Notes: a model not told the origin generated them from the sequence alone. DNA of 64,000 bases from an uncultured Verrucomicrobiae bacterium (GCA_963813025.1 CAWEXO010000005.1:256001-320000), one strand, 5' to 3'; shown: positions 3,870 to 25,878, counted from the first letter of the stretch. Translations and numbers: made by a program.

Positions 3870-4232
3870 CTAGGAGAATGTTTTTCCGATGTCTGCCAGG
3901 TTCGTTGCCCAAACGAGTGTCGCGCGATCATTACACAGCACGTAATGAATGTCGGAACCACCCTCGCTGCGCGGAACAGCAAACCTCTTTACCCATGACG
4001 GGGTATGCGATGGTGCGTTCTTCTCATAAAAATGCTCACCGTAAACGCCTTCAGGATACCGTTTGAGGGTCAGCGGACGATTGCGCAAATGCGGCAGAAT
4101 CACTTCCGCAATGTCGGAGTAAAATGAGATGACCTCTCTCTTAGTAAAGCCACTCTCAGGGAAGTACACTTTCTCCAGATTCGAGATCGTCAGCTCCCGC
4201 CCTTCGAGTTCGATGTGGTGTTTTCCAGGCAT
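3870..4232 (-). pseudogene. ligD: LigD primase-polymerase domain, N-terminal fragment
   Basis: ELTISNLEKVYFPESGFTK..YY-like..LPHLRNRPLTLKRYPEG...FYEKNAP; ends abruptly after about 115 aa. Confidence 0.85.
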
Positions 4233-4715
4233 CTTTGAGGCGGAAATTGGTCGGCTTTTGCAAGGTGAAAGGCCGATTATCCGTCCGTATAAAACACTAA
4301 AGTCAGGTTAGTCCCGCTTCAGGCAAGAAAACATGCGCTTGGACTCATTTGATTTAAGCTCGCTCCGGGAAATCCCAGCGATCAGCTGACCCGGAGCAAC
4401 ATGCGCTCGATTAGAAACAGGAGCTTTTCTTGTTGGCGATCTGGCACGCTGATAGCGATGTTGCAAAAGGGCCTATCTTGCATCGCAATCATCTCCGGGC
4501 GGGCGGATGCATCGTGTGATGCGAGTCTCGCCGTCAGGCCTTTTCGGTGCGTAAGTCAGCTGACGAAGGCTCTTCCGTCCATGCGAGTTGGAAGTCCCTC
4601 TGAGCAATCGGAGCGACGCCGTTACCGTGCTTGGCAGGTTCTTTCCCACGGGGCACCTTGTCCTCCAAGGTCCGCAACCTCACATGTTATGAGGCGCTGG
4701 CCTTTAGACGGCTCT

Positions 4716-6102
4716 TCACACAATCTGGACCTCTGACACGGGCAGTCTGGAAAGCATGTCGCTGTGCTTTGGAGGGGGAACGGCCGCGCGCGCCACAAAA
4801 GTTTTATCCTGAAAATAGAGCGGTTGCCGGCCATAAATTGCCGGAAAACCGGCGCCGTATATGACCATATCCCCGGGTGCAACGATGAGTTCGTGTGTGT
4901 CTTTCTTCGGCCCGGGCATTCGGACACATTCGTCCGGCGTGAGGAGAGAGCGCTGCACCTCCTGCATCGTTGTAGAGACTTGCGTGCCGAGGCCTCGTCC
5001 CGATCGGGTCACTTGTTCTTTAATGATCGTGGTTTGGCCAGTGAGTTTCGAAAGGTGCTCGGCAGTTTCGACGCGATTGGCGGAAATGCTGTTTGCACGT
5101 GGCAATTCGAAGTAATGGTCTCATCGGGTCCATAGCCGGTTTCTCGGCTTTTCAGCTGATTAAGGTCCTGGCTGATCAGGTAACATTTGATTCCGTAGCC
5201 CGCGACAAAACGCCAGGCTTTCCTGCAGGATCTCCAGTTTCCCCAACGCAGGAAATTCGTCGACCATGGCCAGGAGTTTATGCTTGTACGAGGGTTTGGG
5301 TCGACCATTCTCAAACTGCATTCTGTCGGCCAACACTCGGACGATCATATTGACGACTATCCGCACCAGCGGCCGCAATCTGGCTTTGTCGTTGGGCTGG
5401 GTGATGATGTACAAACTCACCGGGTCAACGTAGTGCATGAGGTCGCGGATCCGGAAATCGCTCCGGCTCGTGTTTCTGGCGACCGTGGGATCGCGATAGA
5501 GGTCAAGATAAGTCTTGGCCGTTGAAAGGACTGATCCCGCTTCGTTCGGCGGCCGATCGATCATGTCTCTGGCCGAAGCCGAAACCCTTGCCACTGCGCG
5601 TCGGCGCGAAGCAAAGAACATGTTCCGGACCTCCGTGCCGAAGATATCGTGTTTTACCACTTTTATCGACCCACGCTCCGACATACACACCCTCGTTATC
5701 CAAGAGGCCGGCGGCCTTGATGTCTGCGAGGTCAGCCCACCTGGCGGAGCCGTGCAGGAACGGATTAACTCGGTAGTTCGCCCGGGCAACATCAAGTAAC
5801 AAAAGAAAGAAACAGCCGAGGGTCGTCAGTGAACCGATGCCGAAAGCCTGAGCGAACAGAGCATGATTACTCGGCTGTTCCCAGAGATGCGACCAGACGA
5901 AGTAATTCCAGGGCGGATAAAGATGGAACAGATTGAAACCGAGAGAAGGATGATAGTGGTAAGTGTTAGCCAGGAACTGCGTCGCCACGGCCGATCCAAG
6001 GATAATGGCGACGAGAAAGCGTAGCGCCCTTTTCCAATCTGGTTGAAGGCCCGGACGCCGGCGTTGGGGTTGGGGCCCAACCAGAGTGTTTCGTTTACTC
6101 AT
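4716..6102 (-). pseudogene. traG: TraG/VirD4 coupling protein, copy 1 (internal deletion and frameshifts)
   Basis: Collinear with the intact copy at 23440-25293; APTRSGKG is joined directly to ASARD at about 5580. Confidence 0.9.
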
Positions 6103-7923
6103 CGCTCCAATCCTTGAGCGTGGGTTTGGATGACAACCGCAGGCGTTATCATCAGGGGAGTCTCGCGCGGCTGGCGAGCCAACGTGGCCGCTGTTGCTGC
6201 GTGATGGGCAACGCCAGGATCTCGGGGCCGCTGCGGACCAGGAGGAGATTTTGCCCATTGACCAGGCGAAACCCGACAAAGATCAATCGCCCGGCATCCG
6301 TTGGCTGCCAGAGACGATGAAGTGGTATATCACTGATAGGGTCACGTTTTGCGTTGCGCTCGGAGATATAATCGAGTGCGGCCTGGTTGAGCGGCTCTGG
6401 CGTCGCAGCTTGGGCGTCTCGTCGCGCTTGCTCGAGCGCGGGGTCCTCGAAGGACACTCCGAGATGATGCGTGCCGGCGACTCGCGCTATCCGGAGCTGA
6501 AAACCCTCGGACCCATGAGCATTAAGGCTATTACCGTATCCCTCCATCGCCCGATGAAGCAGCGCTACGATGACATCGTCACCGGCCGCCGTCGCGATGT
6601 GCAGACTTTCCCCATTATCCCTGATCTCATAGTCCCCAACTCTTTCGATCACAGTCCCCTGTTTGGTAACCTCGGCTTCGGAATCAGGCACGGGCGGTGG
6701 TTGCGGTGCGAGTCCGTGCGCGGATAGAGTCGTGGTTTGATCAGTGGTGCGGCGCCGGGCAGCGCGCAAGGCCTTGAGAGCATCTTGCCTTCCGCTGCTG
6801 GCTTGTTCCTGGAGCCAATCGATCCAAGTCAACCTGCGCGTCTCCGCCGCTAACAAGCGCCGCCCGTCGCGCGCCCGACGATTGATCGCTCGAAGCTCCT
6901 GCCGCAGTTCGGTTTTGATCGCGGCATAGCCGATACGGCGTGCCACCCCTTTCAACGTCATCTTCGCAAAGGCGCGTTTTGCTTGGGCGGCTGCTTTTGC
7001 CGCTGCTCCCTCCTGGGCTCGCGAGAGCGCGATTGTTTGGAATTTCGCTTCGCGCAGGGCGGCGCGCAGATCGCGTGTGCCTGATACTCTTCCCAGAGCC
7101 CAGCTGAGTCGATCTGCCAAAACGCCGGCCTTTTTTCGTAACCAGCTACTGCTTGGGTCGTGATGCCTTCTGCGCTGATGAAAGCCCCCAGCCTGGCCTC
7201 AAGTGCGGTCTTGCCGAGCTAACGATGGATCGCGCTGCCTTTGACGTGAACCTGGCCGCGCCGGTCACTAAACACAAATCCATTCGCACGTAAATCGAGT
7301 CGGACACCATGAGCCTCCGCTACACCGTGAAACTCCTCCCAACTGGTGGCGTCAATGAATCCTTGTGCAAAGCGCTGGAGCCAACTCTGAAACGATTCCT
7401 GACCTGACCTGGCGGTAATATCGTTGCCTCTTGATTGAGAGCGCTCGTGGCGATCCTGCGCCAAGCCGAGCTCGCATTCCAGGACAGCAGCCAACTTCGA
7501 TCGGGTTTTATAATCCGCGATCCGATCGTGGAGAGTAAATTTCTGCGGATGGATCTTATTGATCGCCACGTGGACGTGCACGTTATCGGTGTCGTGGTGC
7601 ACAACACTCACTCGCTGATGCTCGGCATAGCCTAGCTCGCTGCAGAAACGTTCTTCAATGATCCGCAATGTTTGAGCATCGGGATTTTCGCCGGCGCGCA
7701 ACGAAATCAAGAGATGGTATGTTCGATCAGATTTCGCGCGGGTGTTGAGTTGCTGGGTTGCGCCAATCTCGCGCACGGCCCAGCTGAGTTCGGTCGACAC
7801 ACAATTAGTAAGAGTAATCTCCCCCACCCTGGTTTTCTTGTTCTGGGAATCGACCAGGTAACGAATCAGTTTTCCGAACCGGCTCTTTTCAGGCGTCTTC
7901 AATGTGACCTTTTTAGAAATCAT
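6103..7923 (-). pseudogene. traI: MOBP1 (TraI-type) relaxase, interrupted; C-terminal LPD7-like region
   Basis: Motifs RFGKLIRY, YHLLISLRAGE and HHDTDNVHVHVAINKIHP in 7219-7923; remainder in 6152-7120. Confidence 0.85.
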
Positions 7924-8660: not shown

Positions 8661-9575
8661 GGGGACGCGCCAGAAGACTTTAAAGTTTCTCGGTTCACCC
8701 TTAGCGCCCAAATTGTTTTCCGACGACCTCATGGGTGGACGGTTGACGACGACCTTTTCCGGTCGGCAGAAAACGCGCAAATCCGTTTCGGTCACGATTG
8801 ATTTACAGAACGGAAAAGTGATTCCGGCGATGGGAAAGCTCAAGAGGCCCCGAAGATTGAAGGGCACAAATGAAAACCGTCCTGACCCTCATATTGTTCG
8901 GTGCTTTTGTCTTAACCGGTGTTGCTCAGACACCTGCTGGCGCGGAAACGATCATTAGCGAGGTCGCCAAGAAAACCCCGTGCACCAGCTCAACCGCTCA
9001 GTTTGCCAGGCCGACTTCACCTACTCGATGGCGTTAAACGTCATCAAGATTCGGGATACCGGCAAAGGTGCCAAATCCCCTAGATAAAGTCTTGACGAAA
9101 AAGGGGTGTCGACTCCCCTCGCCTCCAGCTCACTAATCACAAGTGGCTAGATACCAGCTACTTACATATAGGGGATTGGGTCACTCTTCGAAGTGGGCTG
9201 GTAACAGGTCTCCTTAGCTGGTAACGTGGCCACAAACCTCGGGAAGAATGGATATCTTCCAGCTGGCTTTCAAGCCAATCAGGGCAATCGATCGCTGTTC
9301 CCAGCAAGCGAGTAGGTGGAATCAGCATCTCGTTACGCAGAAGTATCTCTACACCGGGACTGGGCAGGTTCAAACAGGTCCAATTACGCTCAATTCAACC
9401 GGGAGTGGATCGGGCGGACAACTTTCGGGCTAATTGTAATTAGCTCTAAGTAACCAAGTTTACTCCTTTCCGGTAGTCCTTGCTTTTTCGTGTTACATCC
9501 GGGGTGGTTTTGGCATTTGTTTCGATGTTAGTTTTCCGTCCCCTTCTGTTTAAATTGCAGAACGAAAGCCAACCC

Positions 9576-9980
9576 ATGCCAGAACATACGGCTGAATTGC
9601 CGGCCGGCCCCGTCGAGGGCGGCGGCGGACGCGTGCATCCTCCGCGTCCGGGAGTCGAGGAATTACCTGCAGGCCCAGTGTATGCCTTTGACCGCGAAGC
9701 GGTCACCGAATTGTTCCGTTTGCGCGACCGCGTACACGCGCTCGAATCCGAGCTGCTGATCATAAAATTTAATCCGCGATCGCCAAGACCCAATCCTCAC
9801 GAACTCCCGCCGATTCGAGATTTCATTCTCCATCGTCCAGGTCCTGGTGCCCCGAATGAACTTCCTCCAGCCGAATTCGGCGAGCTGACGCAGTATATCA
9901 GCGCGATCCTCGAACGGCTCAGTTCTATCGAGGCGAGCATCGCTGCTCTCGGGGCTTCGACGGGTGCCCAAGGACAATAG
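9576..9980 (+). CDS. 134-aa protein with four ELP motifs; candidate precursor/substrate protein
   Basis: AELPAGPV, EELPAGPV, PHELPP and PNELPP in Pro/Gly-rich linkers, alternating with two amphipathic helices; stop about 10 bp before the next gene. Confidence 0.75.
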   Translation: MPEHTAELPAGPVEGGGGRVHPPRPGVEELPAGPVYAFDREAVTELFRLRDRVHALESELLIIKFNPRSPRPNPHELPPIRDFILHRPGPGAPNELPPAEFGELTQYISAILERLSSIEASIAALGASTGAQGQ

Positions 9981-9989
9981 AGCGGTCAT

Positions 9990-12830
9990 TTGGTCGTGAG
10001 TCGTAGCCGGGAAGAGCTGGCCGCCTGTTTGAGCCGGCATGGCATTCTTTATGCTTCAGCCGGGCAGCCAATTCGGCATCAGGATCGAACACCTGCGCCG
10101 TGGGCATTTTATAGCTGGAACGCTACCCTGACAGCGCATGGATTGCGTCTTGCTGCGGTCTGCATACTGGAGCGGCTGCGCGGATTCAGGGCCTCCCAGT
10201 TAGCAAGCATCGGTTATACCGGCATACCCCTGCTCTCCGCGTGCGTTCTGCTCGGAGAAGGGCGCTACACTGGCCTTTGCATCCGCGAGAGCCGGAAAAA
10301 ATATGTTTCCTGCCGCCAGGTGGAAGGGCCGTTCGACAAATCTGCCCCGGTTGTGATTATCGATGACTCGGTCAGCTCCGGCAATTCCATCGCAGAAGCC
10401 ATCAGGGCTATCGAGAATGAAGGAGGCGAAGTCGAAGGCGCGATCGCCCTAGTGCAGTTTCCGTATCGAGGTGGCCTCGATTGGGCAAATTCGGCTGGCT
10501 ACCGGGCCGAAGCGATCCTGGATGTCTGGTCCGATCTTGGTATGGCCCGCACGCTGGCTAAGCCTGAACGGCGGCCACCCCCGCTTACTGGCAAGGTCAG
10601 AGCTCCCGAAGGCTTGCACCCGGCAGTGCTGGCCCGGTTTTCAGCGGCCACGTGGCTTGCCACGGGTCTGGCGCCCTCGCCGCCCCTGCAAATGGATCGC
10701 AACTATGCATCCCCGGGAGGGGTCTTTGTCAGCTTTCGTGAGCGCGCTAACGATAACCGAATTGCTCGTAACGGATATTGGCATTTCAATCCGGACGATG
10801 CGGCGCCGTGTGCGGACGTGATTGCGGCAACAATTGAGACACTACGGGATGCGCATGGGCGCATTACACCCCAAACCCTTCCAGAACTCAAAATTGCGGT
10901 CACTTTTTTTTCCGCGCTCGAACTGATTAAGCCCAAAGATCTTGATTTTGAGCGTTACGGTATTGTGGTGCGAAGCCGGGCATTTCCAAGTAAGATGGGC
11001 GGCGCGCTGCCCAACACGCAGGCTTTCATCAGCGAGGTCGAACAATATCGCCAGGCGCGCGTGACCAATGCAGGCATTGAGCCTGGCGAGCCCCACGATC
11101 TATTCCGCCACGAGGTCTTCAAATACGTCGAACCGGGCCAAACGTGGCTGCAGTACGGTTCGCCGGAGAGCGCTGCAGGCTGGTGGCGGACCGCAGAGTG
11201 TGGTCGCCGGATCACAGCCCGTGCTCGGCAGTTATTCGACGAACTGCAGGGTAAAGAGGAACAATCGAAGGAAAAAGAAAGCGCAAGTGCTCCGGCCTCA
11301 GTCGATGCTTTTCCATTGGCCAGTGCGCCGGAGGATATTGGCCGTATCGAAGCGGTCGCGGTCCGCGTCTATCACCCGGACTACGGCCTGATCGGATACG
11401 GATTAGCACTGGGAACCGAGTTCGACGACGCGCTGCGTGCTGCGGTGCTACAGGCGGCCGCTGACCCGCGGGGCGGTTCAGGGTTGACGCGCGGAACGAT
11501 AGTCGTTTCCGTCCTGCACGATCCGGAACTGCTCGGCAGGGCGGCCGTCCAAACTGTCGCATTCAAGCTTCGGCGCGGGCTTGATGCGCTTGAAATCCAC
11601 TATTCCGGCAAAACCACGATTCTCCTGCCATCGGTGCTGGTTTACAACAACCTCACGCGAGCGGAATTCGTCCGGACCTGCGTGCGCTTGGCGGGTGCCG
11701 AGGCTGCAGCCGAAAGTCGCCAGGTCGAATGGCGAACCTTGCAATGCGCCGAATGGGTTGATGATGGCCGGTATACCCACCCTTTGCGGTTCGGCTCTGC
11801 GGTTCGTGATGCCGATACCCTGGATTCCGCCTCTTTGATCCGTTTGCTGGGCACTTACATCGTCGGATCGCTCGGGGCTGACCGCCTGCCGCGTTACATG
11901 CTACAACCGGCCAGCGGCGAGGTGCAGATCTACGGGACTGCCGGACGCGCCATTCACGGATTGATGGCGCTGGACCTCGCAGGGTTATTTCTTGGGGAAC
12001 GGAGTTGGCGGGAGGGGGCTGGCGCCGGCTTCGGTTATTGTCTGGACCATGTGCGGGAGGGTACCATCGTTCTTCCCGGCGTCGTCGGCGGGACGCTTGC
12101 GGACGCGGTTCTCCTTGGCGCGGTCGCTCGCTATAAGGCGCTCAGTCAGCGGGCTGCTTCACGCGCTCTGGCTGCCCGTCTGCGCGGCCTGCTGCGGCCG
12201 GAAGGACGAATCGGGTATACGCCTAAGCGGCTTGAACTGCCGCAGGATCACGAGTTTCTGCCCGGAGCTCTGCTGGCCGGTTTGGCAGATTTCGGGGCTA
12301 TCCAGGATGCCGGCGCGCAGGTTGCATGGTACGCACATCATTTTTCAGCTTTGCCGGGGTGGGGACAGGCCGGCTGGCTGCCGCAGGGTATGGCGGCGTT
12401 GTACCGGGTTACTGCAGATCGGGCGGCGGTTGAACTTGCCTTCGCGGCCACTGATTGGGCCATTGATCGGCAACTAGGGAGTAGCGGTGCGTTTCTTGAA
12501 GATCTCAGCCCGGATGAGCCGAGTTTCAATACGGGTTTTATCGCCGAGGGCGTCGCTGCATCCTGGGAGATTGCGATCGCTGTGGGCGACGTCGAACGAG
12601 CCGCACGCTATGCTGCGGCATGGTCGGCAGCGATGCGGTTTATGACAAACCTGATCGTTTTTCCGGAAGACGTTTTCGCGCTGCGGGCCGGACCAAAGGC
12701 CATTGGCGGTGTGCGCTGTACACTGACGCGTTCAGATATTCGGATCGATCAAGTCAGTCACTGCCTTCATGCGCTGGTAACTGGCGCGCGCCTGCAGCCT
12801 TCTGGGTCGCGTCTTAACATGTACGTGTAA
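9990..12830 (+). CDS. Multidomain protein: PyrE-like phosphoribosyltransferase + two AMMECR1-like domains + C-terminal helical (alpha/alpha toroid-like) domain
   Basis: IRESRKKY..RQVEG..VVIIDDSVSSG (PRPP motif); GGVFVSFRE...RYGIVVRS..GGALP and LRRGLDALEI..TILLPSV (AMMECR1-like); C-terminal GGVR...IRIDQVSH. Confidence 0.8.
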   Translation: MVVSRSREELAACLSRHGILYASAGQPIRHQDRTPAPWAFYSWNATLTAHGLRLAAVCILERLRGFRASQLASIGYTGIPLLSACVLLGEGRYTGLCIRESRKKYVSCRQVEGPFDKSAPVVIIDDSVSSGNSIAEAIRAIENEGGEVEGAIALVQFPYRGGLDWANSAGYRAEAILDVWSDLGMARTLAKPERRPPPLTGKVRAPEGLHPAVLARFSAATWLATGLAPSPPLQMDRNYASPGGVFVSFRERANDNRIARNGYWHFNPDDAAPCADVIAATIETLRDAHGRITPQTLPELKIAVTFFSALELIKPKDLDFERYGIVVRSRAFPSKMGGALPNTQAFISEVEQYRQARVTNAGIEPGEPHDLFRHEVFKYVEPGQTWLQYGSPESAAGWWRTAECGRRITARARQLFDELQGKEEQSKEKESASAPASVDAFPLASAPEDIGRIEAVAVRVYHPDYGLIGYGLALGTEFDDALRAAVLQAAADPRGGSGLTRGTIVVSVLHDPELLGRAAVQTVAFKLRRGLDALEIHYSGKTTILLPSVLVYNNLTRAEFVRTCVRLAGAEAAAESRQVEWRTLQCAEWVDDGRYTHPLRFGSAVRDADTLDSASLIRLLGTYIVGSLGADRLPRYMLQPASGEVQIYGTAGRAIHGLMALDLAGLFLGERSWREGAGAGFGYCLDHVREGTIVLPGVVGGTLADAVLLGAVARYKALSQRAASRALAARLRGLLRPEGRIGYTPKRLELPQDHEFLPGALLAGLADFGAIQDAGAQVAWYAHHFSALPGWGQAGWLPQGMAALYRVTADRAAVELAFAATDWAIDRQLGSSGAFLEDLSPDEPSFNTGFIAEGVAASWEIAIAVGDVERAARYAAAWSAAMRFMTNLIVFPEDVFALRAGPKAIGGVRCTLTRSDIRIDQVSHCLHALVTGARLQPSGSRLNMYV

Positions 12831-12963
12831 CAATTTGCTCAAGAAGCCGGCCCGGCGATCTGGAACGTAGTGCGTACCGAAAATCGTCCCACGGCCTGAA
12901 TCAGGAAAACAAGATAACGCCAAATTAGGAAAAAGGAAAATCGCAATGCCTGTTATCACCCTG

Positions 12964-15571: not shown

Positions 15572-18082
15572 ATGAACCGGCCCAAAAAACGCGCAGCGAA
15601 GAAGGACAAGAAGGTCGCCCCCAAAGTGGCGCCAGCCAGCCTGGCCCCGTTTCGAGAGGCCAGTCAGGCGCCCCCAAAATCCTCGCCCAAAGTTGTTCCG
15701 TTTGGGGGCCCCCAGCAAGAATGCCGTCCGCGTTCACGAACCTCGCCGACCTTCGTGGCCCGAATCTCGCGCAAGCTCGGCAAGCTCCGTCAGCCCTGTC
15801 CCTGTGATTCGTGCCCGCCTTCTCCCGAGCTGACCTGCTCGTACATCGGCGAAGATCAATTCGTCGAAGACGCCTATCTCGCCAACGCGTATCGAGGCAA
15901 TCTGTTCTTGACGCCCGGTGATGCCAGCGGTGTTATTGGCGGGCTGCTGCATTCGCTCGATCCTCCACAGCATTACTCCCACATGGGAATCATAGTGGCG
16001 AATCATGACTTGGTCCGTCATTGCACCATGTCGCAGGATCGGCTGACCACCAGCGAGTATTACAGCGGCAGCATGCTGGGAGTTCCGGCGCCCCTTGACG
16101 GACTCGATGTAGATCACGCGCAATACGGTTGGCCTGGGACAATTACCCAATCGGTGTATCAGGCGTTTTTTGCCGCTCGCTACGGCACCGGGATCACACC
16201 GCCCGGCCATTCCGGACCATATAAGGGTTCCTTTCTTCCCGATCCCGAAAGTACTCACAACAATTCCTACCTGATGAACCAACTCGGGTTTGATCCCGTT
16301 TCCGATGACGGAGACACTTGGTATCCACCGCTCATCGTGAAGCTTTGCCCGTTCCTCCAGACTCAGCAGCACACGGAGGCTCTCGATCGCATCGTCCAGG
16401 CCGCGCTATCCGCCTACGCCCATTACCGGTTCTTCGCTTACACCGATGGAGTAATCGGCGGTGAATCGGGGGTAACGGGGGCGAGCTTCACCGTGCCGGT
16501 GGCCCAACCTGATTTCGACCCGTCCACAGGCAGGTGGGCCGATTGGGCCACAAGCCTTAAAACGGTGACGACGCCGACGATCCCGGCCTGCTGCTCCTCG
16601 TTTGCATGGCAAATGGTCCAGAATTCTGTGCCGCCCGGAGGTCCCAAGATCATCCTCGATTGGGCCAATTCACATTTGCAGGCGCTGGGCGAATATCAGG
16701 GTAAATGTATACGCTCCGTTCCGCCGCTGTGGCAAGCCGACTCGCGCGACAAGGCAACGCGCGACGGCCTGTATCTCTATAGCGAGGGCGAGCGCATCCT
16801 GACGGCTAACTCCTTGCACGACAATCTCGCGCAGCTTGTTTACGATAAGCTGAAGGCACAGTTGCATAATGCGGGTGGCGTTGAAAGCGCCGTTGCCAGC
16901 GTCCTCGACGACGTTGGGCGAGACGCGTTTATTATCGCCGCTGGTGCCGGCGTCGCGGCGCTTTCGAGCCTGCTGGGGCCCCTCGTGGCAACGGCAGGGT
17001 ATGTTGTCGATGCGGTCTTCTTGAGTAAACTGATCGAGCTGCTCAAGGACATGCCCGAAGACATTGCCAACCAGATGTGTAACCTGTTCGCCTTCGATTG
17101 TGCCCGCGGCTTCCCGGCCGACGCGCACTGCGTCGATGCCAAGGGCAACCAGATCACGGATGTCGATTCAGATAACTGGAGTTCGGCGCCCGGTCCCGGT
17201 AGGGCTGTCAGCCCCGACAACATCCACATGTTTTGGGACGCACCGGGAATAGCGAACTCGGATATCATCCAAGGCCTTTACGGCTACAACGTTCCCGCCA
17301 AGCTCTGCGTCGGAGTCTTCAACCGGCCGATATGCGCGCTCGTGCCGAGTACGGGCGTTACCACCCTCATCGGGTCAGTGTTCTACAGCAACAAACCAGT
17401 GGCAGGCGCTTACGTTTCAGCAGCTTGCCAATATACCCTTACCTCCGGAGAGCGAATGCCACGTTACAGTCTGAAGGTCCACTCGGGCGGCCAATACAAG
17501 GTGATCGCGCGCTACGAGGACCTGAACACGGGGATGGTGCTGTACGGAGAGGCAGTCACGGGAGACCGCAACTCTCCGCCGCTCCAGCCCAACACCGTGT
17601 TCCACCTCAATATTCAAGTCATCGAACCGCCCCCCAACATGCGCAACGTTGTCATCCAAGGGGTGATTCGTTGCGATGATGTCCAGTTGACCACACAAGA
17701 CAACGGCCAACAGTCATTCCAGACGACGCTTTTCGTGCAGTACGGCGCTGCCGTTTTCGACATCGCCAGCGGAACTTGGAAAATAGATATCTACGCCGGG
17801 CGCCCGACCGATACCGCCAGCGTAGGCTATTCTGTGGGCGATTCGAATGCCTCGGTGCAAATGAGCGCGTACGTCTACTCGGATTATTCCGTGGATGTGA
17901 CGCTGGAAGGACTCCTAAATCCCGGCGACGATAATATGTCGACTGGAAAGCAGACCTTTCACGTCTCCAAAGATCAGACCATCAATCTGACTGAGGCCGA
18001 CCTTGATACGGGCGGTGCATTCCCCGACCGGGCGTACTTCCGGGGATTTACGATTGCGAACAACGCTGTCTCCGCGATCTAG
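15572..18082 (+). CDS. 836-aa protein with a permuted NlpC/P60 (YiiX/YaeF-like) catalytic domain and C-terminal beta-sandwich domains
   Basis: GGAGG RBS; LTPGD..HYSHMGII (His first), HYRF, ACCSSFAW (Cys later), VSPDNI; GSVFYSNKPVAGAYVS resembles a carboxypeptidase-regulatory-like domain. Confidence 0.65.
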   Translation: MNRPKKRAAKKDKKVAPKVAPASLAPFREASQAPPKSSPKVVPFGGPQQECRPRSRTSPTFVARISRKLGKLRQPCPCDSCPPSPELTCSYIGEDQFVEDAYLANAYRGNLFLTPGDASGVIGGLLHSLDPPQHYSHMGIIVANHDLVRHCTMSQDRLTTSEYYSGSMLGVPAPLDGLDVDHAQYGWPGTITQSVYQAFFAARYGTGITPPGHSGPYKGSFLPDPESTHNNSYLMNQLGFDPVSDDGDTWYPPLIVKLCPFLQTQQHTEALDRIVQAALSAYAHYRFFAYTDGVIGGESGVTGASFTVPVAQPDFDPSTGRWADWATSLKTVTTPTIPACCSSFAWQMVQNSVPPGGPKIILDWANSHLQALGEYQGKCIRSVPPLWQADSRDKATRDGLYLYSEGERILTANSLHDNLAQLVYDKLKAQLHNAGGVESAVASVLDDVGRDAFIIAAGAGVAALSSLLGPLVATAGYVVDAVFLSKLIELLKDMPEDIANQMCNLFAFDCARGFPADAHCVDAKGNQITDVDSDNWSSAPGPGRAVSPDNIHMFWDAPGIANSDIIQGLYGYNVPAKLCVGVFNRPICALVPSTGVTTLIGSVFYSNKPVAGAYVSAACQYTLTSGERMPRYSLKVHSGGQYKVIARYEDLNTGMVLYGEAVTGDRNSPPLQPNTVFHLNIQVIEPPPNMRNVVIQGVIRCDDVQLTTQDNGQQSFQTTLFVQYGAAVFDIASGTWKIDIYAGRPTDTASVGYSVGDSNASVQMSAYVYSDYSVDVTLEGLLNPGDDNMSTGKQTFHVSKDQTINLTEADLDTGGAFPDRAYFRGFTIANNAVSAI

Positions 18083-19201
18083 TGCAATAAGTCGGTGACT
18101 AGTTGTGCGATTATGTTGTACGCTATCTGGCGTGAGTTTAGGCAGAATTGTGTTGGCGCCGCCTGAGCGGCGTGAATTGAAGCGCAGGGCGCGGAAACGG
18201 TCTCTGGCGATGGAGTTAGTCAAACGTGCAGAGGTCATTTTGATGTTGGCATCAGGTCATTCTTACCGGGAAGTTCGGCAGCGGCTGGATTGCAGTGATG
18301 AGTATATCCGGGAGTGGAAGAAGCGCTTTCAAGAGGAGCGGTTGGCGGGACTCGATTCGCGTTATCGCGGTAGTCCACGCCGAACCCGTACAGCTGAGAC
18401 CGAGGCGCGTATCTTGGAACTCACGCGTCAGGGTCCCAAGGACGGTACGACCCACTGGAGCAGCTATCGGCTGGCAAAAGATCTGGGCATTAGCCAGTCG
18501 AGCGTGAGCCGTGTCTGGCGCCATTTCGGCATTCAGCCTCATCGGCTGCGTGGTTACATGGCCAGCGATGATCCTGAGTTTAAAGAGAAGGCGGCAGATA
18601 TCATTGGCTTGTATCTTGAGCCACCGGTAAACGCCGCGGTCTTCTGCGTCGATGAGAAGAGCGCTATCCAAGCGCTCGATCGACTTGACCCAGTTTTGCC
18701 TCTTTCCCCCGGCCGAGCTGAACGACATGGCTTTGAGTATTTTCGTCACGGCACCCTCTCACTGTATGCGGCGCTCGACACTCGCACCGGCGACGTTATG
18801 GGAAAGACCACCGCTAGGCATACCAGTGCTGAGTTTGTCGGCTTTCTCGGCCAGATCGTCGCCAGCCAGCCCGATGGCCGAGAGATTCACATCGTCGCCG
18901 ACAACTTGAGCGCACATAAAACCAAGCATGTTTTCGAGTTCCTCCAGGCCAATCCAACGGTTCGGATCCACTACACCCCGACCTATTCCAGTTGGCTCAA
19001 TCAAGTCGAGATCTGGTTTTCCAAAATCCAACGCGATGTCATCGCTCGCGGAATCTTCACTTCTACAACCGACCTCTCCAGAAAGCTGATTCGCTACATC
19101 AGGCAGTACAACAAAACCGCCACACCCTTCCGCTGGAGATATAAGAATGCCGATCATCGCATTAAACAAGTCACTCAACGAGGCTCTGACTCACTGCACT
19201 A
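18080..19201 (+). mobile_element. Intact IS630-family element; transposase 18105-19202
   Basis: VFCVDEKS, IVADNLSAHK, TPTYSSWLNQVEIWF; IRs TAGTGCAATAAGTC and GACTCACTGCACTA; CTAG at both ends. Confidence 0.95.
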
Positions 19202-23439: not shown

Positions 23440-25293
23440 TCACACAATCTGGACCTCTGGCAACGGCAATCTGGAAAGCATGTCGCTGTCTTTTGGAGGC
23501 TGCACAGCTGCTCGAGCCACAAAGGTTTCGTCCTGAAAATAGAGAGGCTGACGGCCGTAAATCGCCGGAAAACCGGCGCAGTAGATGACCATATCCCCGG
23601 GTTCGACGATGAGTTCGTGCGCATCTTTCTTTGGTCCCGGCATTCGGGAACATTCGTCAGGCGTGAGAAGAGGTCGCTGCACCTCTTGCACTGTTGTAGA
23701 GATTTGCGTGTCGAGGCCTCGTCCGGATCGGGTGACCTGTTCTTTAATGATGGTCGTTTGGCCGGTGAGTTTCGAAAGGTGCTCGGCAGTTTCGACCCGG
23801 TTGGGCGGGAACGCTGTTTGAACGTGACAATTCGAAGTGATGGTCTCGTCTGGTCCATAACCGGTTTCCCGGCTTTTCAACTGATTAAGGTCCTGGCTAA
23901 TCAGGTAACACTTGATTCCGTAGCCCGCGACGAATGCCAGGCTTTCCTGGAGTATCTCCAGTTTCCCCAATGCAGGGAATTCGTCGATCATGGCCAGAAG
24001 CTTATGCTTGTACGACGGTTTGGGACGGCCATTTTCAAACTGCATTTTGTCCGCTAAGAGCCGGACAATCATATTGACGACAATGCGCACCAGGGGCCGC
24101 AACCTGGCTTTGTCATTGGGTTGGGTGACGATGTACAAACTCACCGGGTCAACGTAGTGCATGAGGTCGCGGATCCGGAAATCGCTGCGGCTGGTGTTTC
24201 TGGCAACAGTGGGATCGCGATAGAGGTCCAGATAGGTCTTGGCCGTTGAAAGGACCGATCCGGCTTCATTGGGCGGACGGTCAAGCATATCTCTGGCCGA
24301 AGCAGCAACCACCGGATGATTGTGACCATTGATGTGACCATAACTGAGCATTTCAGTCCAGAGTTCCTGGACCGGCCGGCTCGAGTCGGCCAGCATCTGG
24401 TCCAGAGCCGCAAAGGTCGCGGGCGATCCTTCCAGTTTCGCCTTGTAGCAGAGGTGCAGGATGCAGCCGACTAGTAGCGAATAGGCGGTTTTCTGAAAGT
24501 GATCGCCCGGCCGTAATCCTTTGCCATCCGGATCAACCATCAGGAGCGCAAGGTTCTGAACGTCTCCAACCTCATGTTCTGTCCCCAGCCGCAGCTCATC
24601 CATCGGGTTAAAGCAACAAGAACCGGCCGCCGTGGCGGGCTCGAAGCGCAACACCTTGTTATGCGCGTACTGCTGGCGCCATCCTGCGGTGAGTTCGTAA
24701 AGCTCGCCTTTGAGGTCGGTAACGAACACGCTGTGAGGCCAAGAGAGCAGCGTCGGAACGACGAGACCGACCCCTTTCCCGCTGCGCGTCGGGGCGTAAC
24801 AGAGAACATGTTCAGGGCCTGCATGGCGCAGGTATCGAATGTTACCCGCTTGATCGATCCAGGCTCCGACATACACACCGTCGTTACCCAAGAGGCCGGC
24901 GGCCTTGATGTCTGCGAGGTCAGCCCACCTGGCGGAGCCGTGCAGGAAGGGGTTAACTCTGTAGTTTGCCCGGGCGACATCGAGTAGTAAAAGAAAGAAG
25001 CATCCAAGGGTCACGAGTGAACCGATGCCGAAGGCCTGGGCGAAAAGGGTACGATTACCGGGACTTTCCCAGAGATGCGACCAGACAAAGTAATTCCAAG
25101 GCGGGTAAAGATGGAACAGATTGAAACCAAGCGAAGGCTGATAGCGATAAGTATTAGCCAAGAACTGCGTGGCCACAGCCGACCCGAGGATAATGGCGAC
25201 AAGAAAGCCTCGCGCCCTTTTCCAATCTGGCTGAATGCCAGCACGCCGGCGATGGAGTTGCGGCCCAACCAGAGTGTTCCGTTTGTTATTCAA
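23440..25293 (-). CDS. traG: TraG/VirD4 type IV coupling protein, intact copy 2
   Basis: HGSARWA, APTRSGKGVG (Walker A), DLKGEL, MIDEFPALG (Walker B); 617 aa. Confidence 0.95.
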   Translation of the reverse strand: MNNKRNTLVGPQLHRRRAGIQPDWKRARGFLVAIILGSAVATQFLANTYRYQPSLGFNLFHLYPPWNYFVWSHLWESPGNRTLFAQAFGIGSLVTLGCFFLLLLDVARANYRVNPFLHGSARWADLADIKAAGLLGNDGVYVGAWIDQAGNIRYLRHAGPEHVLCYAPTRSGKGVGLVVPTLLSWPHSVFVTDLKGELYELTAGWRQQYAHNKVLRFEPATAAGSCCFNPMDELRLGTEHEVGDVQNLALLMVDPDGKGLRPGDHFQKTAYSLLVGCILHLCYKAKLEGSPATFAALDQMLADSSRPVQELWTEMLSYGHINGHNHPVVAASARDMLDRPPNEAGSVLSTAKTYLDLYRDPTVARNTSRSDFRIRDLMHYVDPVSLYIVTQPNDKARLRPLVRIVVNMIVRLLADKMQFENGRPKPSYKHKLLAMIDEFPALGKLEILQESLAFVAGYGIKCYLISQDLNQLKSRETGYGPDETITSNCHVQTAFPPNRVETAEHLSKLTGQTTIIKEQVTRSGRGLDTQISTTVQEVQRPLLTPDECSRMPGPKKDAHELIVEPGDMVIYCAGFPAIYGRQPLYFQDETFVARAAVQPPKDSDMLSRLPLPEVQIV

Positions 25294-25878
25294 TCAATGC
25301 TCCAATGCTTGGGTTTGGATGACGACGGAAGGCGTGATCGTCAGAGGGATCTCGCGTTGTTGGCGAGCCAAAAAGTGCCGCTGTTGCTGAGTAATAGGCA
25401 ATACCAGGATCTCAGGTCCGCCGCGGGCGAGCAGGAGATTTTGCCCGTTGACCAGGCGTAACCCAACAAAGATCAGTTGTCCGGCATCCTTCGGCTGCCA
25501 GAGCCGATGAAATGGTATGTCACTGACGCGATCACGTTTCGAATTGCGCTCCGAGATATAATCGAGCGCGGCCTGGTTTGGCGGTGCCGGCGTGGCAGCT
25601 TCGGCTTCTCGGCGCGCTTGCTCGAGCGCCGCGTTCTCGAAGGACACTCCGACGTGATGCGACCCGGCAACTCGAGCGATCCGAAGCTGAAACTCGAGCG
25701 GCCCATGAGCCACCAAACTTGTTCCCAAGCGTTCGGCGGCGCGCTGAAGCATTGCCAGGATCACATCGTCACCAGCCGCTGTGGCGACATGCAGACTTTC
25801 TCCATTATCCCGGATCTCATAGTCCCCGATCCTCTCGATCAAGGTCCCCTGTTTAGTAACTTGGGCTTGGGGATCCAA
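25294..25878 (-). pseudogene. Relaxase C-terminal fragment (copy 2)
   Basis: Collinear with about 6110-6680 (VTKQGT.IER.GDYEIRDNGESLH); the N-terminal relaxase domain is missing. Confidence 0.85.

Follow-up and report, generated by a model that had tools for sequence, protein, structure and literature searches.

The AMMECR1 domain is ancient, being found from archaea to humans, and it was named after a human contiguous-gene deletion syndrome. Memo-AMMECR1 systems are reported, in the abstract of a 2019 J Biol Chem article by Burroughs et al., to be linked to the modification of nucleotide bases and isoprenoids. Among described arrangements, the AmmeMemoRadiSam system is the one with which we compare a two-gene unit located at positions 9441..12905 (+) of a 64,000-nucleotide (nt) stretch of DNA, below called the window, from an uncultured Verrucomicrobiae bacterium (GCA_963813025.1 CAWEXO010000005.1:256001-320000). 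The first gene of this unit encodes a 134-amino-acid (aa) acidic, proline- and glycine-rich protein (the partner), while the second encodes a 946-aa protein (the enzyme), in which a phosphoribosyltransferase (PRTase) domain is followed by two AMMECR1-like domains and a helical barrel. Both systems are conserved and consist of several parts. They have the AMMECR1 fold in common, with the second AMMECR1-like domain of the enzyme matching the family model TIGR04335 (AmmeMemoSam_A) below its threshold (residues 479-585, E 2.7e-8, 33.4 bits versus a cut-off of 99). In contrast to AmmeMemoRadiSam, which has a Memo-type protein B and a radical S-adenosylmethionine (SAM) protein, the present unit has neither as a conserved neighbor. 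Instead, its AMMECR1 domain is duplicated and fused to the PRTase and the barrel, and its constant neighbor is an acidic repeat protein.

Other described proteins resemble separate parts of the unit. The N-terminal domain of the enzyme shares with PyrE its fold, the motif for binding phosphoribosyl pyrophosphate (PRPP) and the loop preceding this motif, but unlike PyrE it scores below the family threshold, makes up only the N-terminal fifth of a 946-aa protein, and occurs in few species. Multi-core systems of ribosomally synthesized and post-translationally modified peptides (RiPPs), such as graspetides, the maturases of which are ATP-grasp enzymes of the MvdC/MvdD type, or precursors with nitrile hydratase-like leader peptides (NHLP) and their radical-SAM enzymes, likewise place a repeat-bearing ribosomal product beside a dedicated enzyme, whereas the enzyme described here is devoid of known RiPP maturase domains. 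The barrel has its fold in common with six-hairpin enzymes, including the glycoside hydrolase (GH) families GH76 and GH88/GH105, the N-acylglucosamine 2-epimerase family and class II terpene cyclases (Z 21-24 over about 270-310 residues), but the sequence identity is 8%-17% and no family leads. Our literature search returned no description of the PRTase-AMMECR1-barrel architecture, nor of a reaction or biochemical function of AMMECR1, and a passage of one article merely names "Memo-Ammecr1 systems" (PMC7159879). The module could serve as a tractable handle on AMMECR1, because it has only two genes, occurs in harmless soil bacteria that are in culture, and includes a likely substrate or partner of the enzyme.

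RESULTS AND DISCUSSION

An acidic repeat protein is encoded next to the enzyme across phyla

A word-indexed search yielded 314 homologues of the enzyme among 8000 scored candidates, and nearly all of the 120 homologues listed were 900-990 aa long and had the same architecture. Gene neighborhoods were compared by scanning one genome per species, from 185,579 species, for the GGALPNTQ motif of the first AMMECR1-like domain. The scan gave 57 matches, 49 of which encode a relative of the enzyme. Judged by the record titles, these 49 loci belong to Pseudomonadota, Acidobacteriota, Actinomycetota, Verrucomicrobiota, Chloroflexota, Thermodesulfobacteriota, and Eremiobacterota/Vulcanimicrobiota, which makes at least seven phyla, and the genomes come mostly from soil, peat or wetland. 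The data showed that an open reading frame (ORF) encoding a repeat protein is directly adjacent to the enzyme gene in 43 of the 49 loci (35 upstream, eight downstream), and within one gene of it in 47. The original prediction would have been refuted by homologues without a conserved repeat protein, and this was not the outcome: a repeat ORF is conserved beside the enzyme, directly upstream in 35 loci, directly downstream in eight and one gene away in four. The ELP sequence itself is not constant.

The directly upstream ORFs are of two kinds. In 18 loci they match the profile of the partner from the window (type A), while in the other 17 (L024, L026, L028-L031, L033-L035, L037, L039-L041, L044, L046, L048, L049) they consist of long tandem repeats of the forms P-E-V/I/T-G, P-E-x (with 32 ELP motifs in L033), V-x-E-I-A-G-P or D-x-P, or of P-I-E-P-G followed by runs of E-L-E or S-D-A-E. 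The downstream partners are those of six Thermoanaerobaculia (L010, L012-L014, L016, L017), with repeats of the E-R-P-D/E-I-V-E type, and those of L021 and L045. Where one gene intervenes, the partners are two paralogues with P-E-T repeats (L036), a divergent ORF past a methyltransferase gene (L019), or ORFs with G-I-E-A-P-E-P repeats upstream of an ATP-grasp gene (L038, L043). The start and stop codons of the partner and enzyme genes overlap by 4 nt in several loci. Among cultured hosts, Paraburkholderia humisilvae and Dyella subtropica have type A pairs, and Microbacterium deminutum JCM 14901 and Hamadaea tsunoensis DSM 44101 have tandem-repeat pairs.

When the 3226 ORFs of the window and the 49 loci were clustered all against all, no other neighbor family proved to be common to different lineages. 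Apart from the enzyme with its shadow frames, the recurring clusters were those of the partners, and the remainder reflected lineage-specific synteny only. The association was also apparent in a crude control based on the count of acidic-x-Pro/Gly per 120-residue window, in which 27 of 7627 six-frame ORFs scored 9 or more. Twenty-five of these lie on the DNA of partner genes, in the sense or another frame, while the other two are antisense to the enzyme gene in L041 and 1.3 kb downstream in L046. This count misses the type A partners, which score 6-8, as do some chance ORFs. The partner classes themselves were assigned by inspection and with one profile. Taken together, the two genes very probably form one functional module.

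The enzyme combines a PRTase, two AMMECR1-like domains and a barrel

The enzyme gene (9990..12830 (+)) is supported by the ORF listing, by homologues and by an AlphaFold2 model. Its product had been described from the DNA as a PyrE-like PRTase fused to two AMMECR1-like domains and a helical domain, and this description agrees with Pfam, NCBIfam, a profile search of the PDB and the structure models. The model of the full enzyme, which was predicted with high confidence (predicted local distance difference test [pLDDT] 93, predicted template modeling [pTM] score 0.92), consists of four parts, the two AMMECR1-like domains being divergent. Pfam AMMECR1 matches the protein in two stretches (E 2.5e-10), while the PRTase motif is subthreshold there. 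A profile built from 69 homologues matched the orotate phosphoribosyltransferases (OPRTases) 2p1z and 2wns in the PDB with E ~5e-16. It also matched the AMMECR1 structures 1vaj, 1zq7 and 1wsc, with profile positions 465-564 aligned to 1vaj and positions 410-565 to 1zq7, while the last 350 residues of the enzyme gave no match to a PDB sequence.

The OPRTase-like, type I PRTase domain comprises residues ~1-190 (9990..10559 (+)) and is supported by Foldseek, the PDB profile and conservation. Its structural counterpart in Foldseek is the Mycobacterium tuberculosis OPRTase 5hki (E 1.6e-10, target TM score 0.90, root mean square deviation [rmsd] 2.2). The NCBIfam pyrE match to residues 47-157 (E 2.8e-12) is under the cut-off; TIGR00336 (pyrE) scored 46.7 bits versus a cut-off of 106.8, and other pyrE models were far under theirs. 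A residue-level alignment with OPRTases covers the PRPP motif (residues 120-132, 10347-10385 (+)) and the loop ahead of it. The conserved motif residues in the 69 sequences are D125, D126, S127, S129, S130 and G131, of which S130 and G131 are invariant, as are R99 and K103 in the loop, while the conservation of D125 and D126 is 90% or higher.

The first AMMECR1-like domain (residues ~200-400, 10587..11189 (+)) is best matched by Pfam PF01871 in the stretch 236-367. It contains GGALPNTQ, which is the most conserved motif of the family, with G337-L340 invariant. The second AMMECR1-like domain (residues ~450-600, 11337..11789 (+)), which is recognized by TIGR04335 and by the PDB entries 1vaj and 1zq7, is preceded in the AlphaFold2 model by residues 402-429, which form a long helix, and by residues 431-445, which form a disordered linker.

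The C-terminal domain (residues ~605-940, 11802..12809 (+)), which ends with the sequence R-x-D-x-x-S-H, was identified from a separate model, VIA-align and Foldseek. When modeled alone it folds into an (alpha/alpha)6 barrel with pLDDT 93. In VIA-align it was superimposed on the GH76 mannanase 6shm with Z 24.4 and rmsd 2.9 over 288 aligned residues, on drimenyl diphosphate synthase 8zg0 with Z 24.1, and on squalene cyclase 1gsz with Z 23.6, the identity to these three being 10%-17%. Similar Z values were obtained for GH88/105 hydrolases and sugar epimerases, and many further families had Z 19-24. The identity to all these structures is 8%-17%, no family leads, and the best Foldseek E value is 2.7e-5. 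No LanC entry was among the best 50 structural matches listed, which does not rule out a likeness to LanC. Residues conserved in the barrel among the 69 sequences are R653, H656, R784, W791, W796, D822, E853, R909, R918, D920 and H924, and the C-terminal R918, D920, S923 and H924 are invariant or almost so.

Shorter or split forms of the enzyme (24 and 34 matches) look like fragments of the same family and not like a distinct architecture, with longer forms not having been searched. Five of the 34 matches have "partial" in the name given by their source, and short contigs account for many of the matches.

The partner is a variable, acidic, proline- and glycine-rich protein

The partner gene of the window (9576..9980 (+)) is supported by the ORF listing, alignment, profile matches and the pattern of codon differences described below. 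The frame is open over 9480..9980 (+), and the likely start codon is the ATG at 9576, because the relatives begin at an equivalent methionine and the stretch upstream of it is wholly unlike in the second genomic copy of the pair. The resulting 134-aa protein contains the four ELP motifs that had been reported for it. They correspond to residues 7-9 (9594..9602 (+)), 29-31 (9660..9668 (+)), 76-78 (9801..9809 (+)) and 95-97 (9858..9866 (+)). In an alignment of 16 relatives E7 and P9 of the first motif, E29 of the second, and E95 and L96 of the fourth are invariant, P31 is almost so, and the third motif is kept in most relatives, not all. The helix residues E45, R52 and E57 are also invariant. 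The type A protein is an internal duplication, the unit of which consists of ELP, a glycine-rich acidic stretch, a further ELP, and an amphipathic helix.

In the window and in each of the 18 type A loci, the profile made from these 16 proteins recognized a single ORF, which immediately precedes the enzyme gene and in L003 and L004 is in two pieces; the sole further match was marginal (E 0.11). Type A proteins are rare, with 97 representatives, mostly of 80-190 aa, at E <=0.001 among 1.84 billion cluster representatives. A look-up of the partner in the ESM Atlas gave only weak unnamed matches (0.82). One 630-aa database protein (P0219) carries a type A-like segment in frame with a homologue of the enzyme, of which it has the N-terminal two thirds. 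If natural, this fusion would be a weak hint; its first ~65 residues look out of frame, and it may be the product of a sequencing frameshift.

The composition of the partners was compared for 47 ORFs of 45 loci and the window, with L003, L004 and L027 left out. The proteins are of low complexity and range from ~130 to more than 600 aa. Aspartate and glutamate together account for 11%-37% of residues, proline for up to 30% and glycine for up to 26%, while the content of lysine and arginine is usually low, with the exception of the P-E-R-P and E-R-P-D types (11%-21%) and of L041 (14%). What the partner types share is a repeat rich in Glu/Asp and in Pro/Gly, and each type also has conserved nonrepeat parts, such as the helices of type A. 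Hence, ELP, which had been taken for the conserved core, is one local form of a variable acidic repeat, other forms being P-E-V/I-G, P-E-x, E-R-P-D-I-V-E, G-I-E-A-P-E-P and D-x-P. A strict E-x-P was also considered as the universal core and dropped, as four partner types have few or none.

By eye, the downstream partners of L010, L014, L017, L021 and L045, which come from different phyla, have in common an N-terminal K/Q-V-x-x-P-F-S/T sequence. Placed ahead of unrelated repeats, this motif is a candidate docking element. The partners at L030:4100-5974 and L039:5258-5956 match trypanosome procyclin (PF05887, under the cut-off) and the X-P-Z repeats of a streptococcal immunoglobulin A-binding protein model, which we read as low-complexity resemblance and not as homology.

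The gene pair is inherited and transferred as a cassette

A second intact copy of the pair is present in the same genome (G000 contig C12, L055:10515-13974 (-)) between unrelated flanks. It is 97.8% identical to window positions 9448-12905 over 3461 nt (blastn), and nothing else in the 20 kb around it matches the window. Contigs that belong to a relative (~96% alike) and come from two soil metagenome runs lose their match to the window at 9441 and at 12873 and continue into unlike sequence. Because the block is duplicated in the genome and has other flanks in the metagenome contigs, the pair can be described as a discrete cassette of ~3.4 kb. Only short, chance-level matches were found in a search for terminal repeats at its ends. 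The enzyme ORF of the second copy has 944 aa and begins with GTG, and the enzyme in the window may also start at the corresponding GTG 9996; with two possible starts, at 9990 and at 9996, the intergenic gap is 9-15 nt. Between the two copies the partner genes have 11 synonymous and four nonsynonymous differences in 133 codons, and the enzyme genes 22 synonymous and 12 nonsynonymous differences in 944 codons.

A quick maximum-likelihood tree was made from 42 intact enzymes, leaving out L001, L015, L017, L025, L026, L047, L048 and L049 as truncated, split or over-long. With two exceptions, every partner type with several members corresponds to one supported group of enzymes. The 12 partner classes need 11 changes on this tree, which is the minimum, as compared with a mean of 25.9 after shuffling, and a number this small was not reached in any of 200 shuffles. 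Four phyla are represented in the type A clade (support 100), namely Pseudomonadota, Acidobacteriota, Actinomycetota and, with the window, Verrucomicrobiota, so that the partner type tracks the enzyme clade and not the host phylum. This correspondence shows co-inheritance and co-transfer of the two genes; it is not evidence of co-evolution, because relatedness alone gives such clustering.

Genes for peptide modification accompany the pair in five loci

Five loci contain additional genes that could tie the partner to ribosomal peptide or protein modification. An ATP-grasp ribosomal peptide maturase of the MvdC/MvdD type is encoded by the intervening gene of L038 and L043; it has the Pfam MvdD pre-ATP-grasp domain and matches NCBIfam with E 1e-48 and 2e-42, respectively, under the equivalog cut-offs. 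L027 has beside the unit a RiPP radical-SAM C-methyltransferase (TIGR03975, 550 bits versus a cut-off of 282), and L019 a methyltransferase gene. In L036 there are genes for a B12-binding radical-SAM protein, a prolyl-hydroxylase-type 2-oxoglutarate-dependent oxygenase and a short-chain dehydrogenase/reductase, and its two partners have a weak likeness to NHLP leaders (E ~3e-4, below the cut-off), which is confined to this locus. These genes support a connection of the partner with ribosomal peptide or protein modification. The window has no ATP-grasp gene of the MvdC/MvdD type.

Genes for Memo and radical-SAM proteins, which usually accompany AMMECR1 domains, had been noticed to be missing from the window. 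Consistent with that, neither was a conserved neighbor in the clustering, neither was detected among 92 neighbor ORFs of 12 loci that were compared with Pfam, and the radical-SAM genes seen in a few loci are of RiPP or PqqE types. As for exporters and proteases, the same Pfam comparison detected only scattered, nonrecurrent transporters and one subtilase.

Possible roles of the partner and the enzyme

The arrangement resembles a means of chemical protein modification that has not been described before. The explanation that we favor, with a probability of roughly 0.4, is a post-translational modification of the partner's acidic repeats by the enzyme, possibly with the use of PRPP, and we consider it slightly less than an even chance that the partner is a substrate of the enzyme. 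In the mechanism that we propose, the PRTase domain would bind PRPP, as suggested by the conservation of the PRPP motif and of the loop preceding it, and would transfer 5-phosphoribose to the carboxylate of glutamate or aspartate in the partner. The carboxylate is the expected target because no other reactive side chain is common to the repeats of every partner type, and with this target the product would be a ribosyl ester. Binding and further processing of the phosphoribosylated repeat could then fall to the AMMECR1 pair and to the sugar-enzyme-like barrel, in which four arginines as well as His, Asp, Glu and Trp residues are conserved. A polyanionic protein that is modified and remains in the cell is a more likely product than a secreted or released peptide, because no protease or exporter is conserved and the type A partner, which begins directly at its first motif, has no signal peptide evident by eye.

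Ester-linked ADP-ribosylation of Glu/Asp and phosphoribosyl-linked protein modification are among the closest known modifications, and the linkage proposed here, an ester between C1 of ribose and a glutamate carboxylate, would be the same. The known enzymes use NAD+ and have ADP-ribosyltransferase folds, whereas a type I PRTase that acts with PRPP would reach such a linkage, were it formed, in a new way. A PRPP-dependent modification of glutamate in particular is chemically plausible, yet we regard it as doubtful, and it is similarly unlikely that a type I PRTase fused to an AMMECR1 pair and a barrel decorates Glu/Asp of disordered repeat proteins with phosphoribose or its derivative. If such decoration does occur, it would be the first biochemical role for the AMMECR1 domain and would mean that soil bacteria make a modified polyanionic protein. 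More generally, if the enzyme modifies the repeats, it would be a maturase of new architecture, its products would be a new family of modified acidic repeat polymers resembling elastin or procyclin, and the modification of ribosomal peptides or proteins would possibly gain a new chemistry that depends on PRPP.

Several observations weigh against a modification of the partner by the enzyme. Type I PRTases with a carboxylate or a protein as the nucleophile are not known. The variability of the repeats (E-x-P, P-E-V-G, E-I-A-G-P, S-D-A-E, D-x-P) makes a sequence-specific site hard to picture, and no RiPP recognition element (RRE) domain was found by Pfam or NCBIfam. The layout of a RiPP-like precursor and its maturase, which was part of the original prediction, is reflected in the adjacent pair and in the RiPP maturases of five loci, but not in the rest: no protease or exporter is conserved among the clustered neighbors, partners of more than 600 aa are unlike RiPP precursors, and accessory maturases are limited to five of 49 loci, the other 44 and the window having the pair alone. 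Two loci also depart from the common pattern, as L027 has only a doubtful downstream ORF with V-E-A/M-R-P repeats, which is basic and not acidic, and L022 is the only locus without any repeat partner. In addition, high-GC repeat DNA is open in several frames, and the frame of each partner was chosen by strand, spacing and conserved nonrepeat ends. Co-folding of enzyme residues 5-938 with partner residues 1-66 gave a score of 0.00, which, obtained without controls, speaks neither way.

Alternatively, the partner may not be a substrate but a regulator, an inhibitor or a scaffold of the enzyme, the reaction of which would be to make a nucleotide-like small molecule from PRPP or to destroy one. 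As a disordered polyanion, for instance, the partner could resemble a ligand that is phosphorylated or akin to a nucleic acid, and thereby keep the enzyme inactive. The pair would then be a toxin-antitoxin-like or a conflict or defense module. A hypervariable partner next to a conserved enzyme, a gene order that varies between upstream and downstream, a cassette that crosses phyla, and its two copies in a genome amid mobile-element debris would all fit this explanation, and all three folds of the enzyme are typical of small-molecule chemistry. The PRTase fold is also known to be used as a nucleotide sensor and effector in other systems. However, the best match of the enzyme to the defense models of PADLOC-DB 2.0 was PRTase_III-A with E 0.055 over 32 residues, and the partner had no match. 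Many loci are ordinary chromosomal ones without mobile or defense genes, RiPP-type maturases are in or beside the unit in five loci, and single-repeat partners of several hundred residues would be unusual as antitoxins. We hold a regulatory role to be a reasonable minority possibility, which, if correct, would reveal a new kind of polyanion-controlled nucleotide enzyme moving between phyla. Still less probable is that the acidic residues of the partner hold a growing small molecule, which is built by the enzyme and then released. Such carrier logic is known from the amino-group carrier LysW with its ATP-grasp ligase and from the scaffold peptides of pearlin pathways. The ATP-grasp ligase encoded between partner and enzyme in L038 and L043, weaker matches of which include RimK-type glutamate ligases, agrees with it, the multidomain enzyme suggests several chemical steps, and a pure carrier needs no exporter or protease. 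On the other hand, known carriers use one defined site, usually the C terminus, and not tens to more than 100 repeats; no C-terminal acidic tail is conserved across partner types, and the ATP-grasp gene is limited to two of 49 loci.

It is highly improbable that the adjacency has no meaning, with the large protein being a fusion of a pyrimidine-salvage or other housekeeping PRTase and the small ORF a chance or noncoding frame. This could be suggested by the similarity of the N-terminal domain to PyrE above other families, by the openness of high-GC repeat DNA in many frames, and by the fact that the genome of the window, which is 80% complete, has no other match over the pyrE cut-off. However, four of 14 control genomes also miss this cut-off, so this result says little. 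The co-occurrence counts already contradict a chance association, as 47 of 49 loci in at least seven phyla have the partner. Moreover, the partner is conserved as a protein with invariant residues, synonymous changes are in excess, and the enzyme is found in 49 loci among 185,579 species, so it is not a housekeeping protein.

Genomic surroundings of the pair

Both genes of the pair are whole in a region where most others are broken, as had been noted from the window. The surroundings are debris of a conjugative element and insertion sequences (IS), with a truncated IstB and fragments of LigD, TniQ and several transposases. A decayed conjugation set (3873-7923) contains pieces of a coupling protein (4719-5105, 5163-5795) and of a relaxase (6155-7120, 7222-7923). 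A promoter and terminator scan gave no site ahead of 9576 or beyond 12830, and terminator-like sites were not above those in shuffled sequence. In one metatranscriptome library there are three contigs of a relative, 93%-96% alike, at 9581-9838, 9815-10110 and 10230-10468. The second of them crosses the junction of the two genes, although contigs from an RNA library prove neither transcription nor a single transcript; the rest of the enzyme gene is not covered, and this gap carries no weight either way.

Some further genes were noticed near the pair in the window and in other loci. In L022 a small convergent ORF (L022:8916-9173 (-)) ends in a motif like that of double-glycine leaders, followed by a short proline-rich tail with P-E-L; it may be a chance frame. 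Genes for patatin-like phospholipases are located beside the unit at L010:4792-5835 and L030:8911-9744, as identified by Pfam, and at L013:4606-5649, as identified by eye, and L010 also has an nSTAND1-trypsin protein nearby. The association with patatins may be a coincidence or specific to a lineage. In the window, an intact 836-aa ORF (15572-18082 (+)) without a match in Pfam, NCBIfam or PADLOC is located 2.7 kb downstream of the pair and is flanked by a fragment of IstB and by the gene for a transposase of the IS630 type (18105-19199). Further downstream, a second conjugation set includes an intact 617-aa coupling protein (23443-25293), which adjoins a C-terminal piece of a relaxase (25297-25878).

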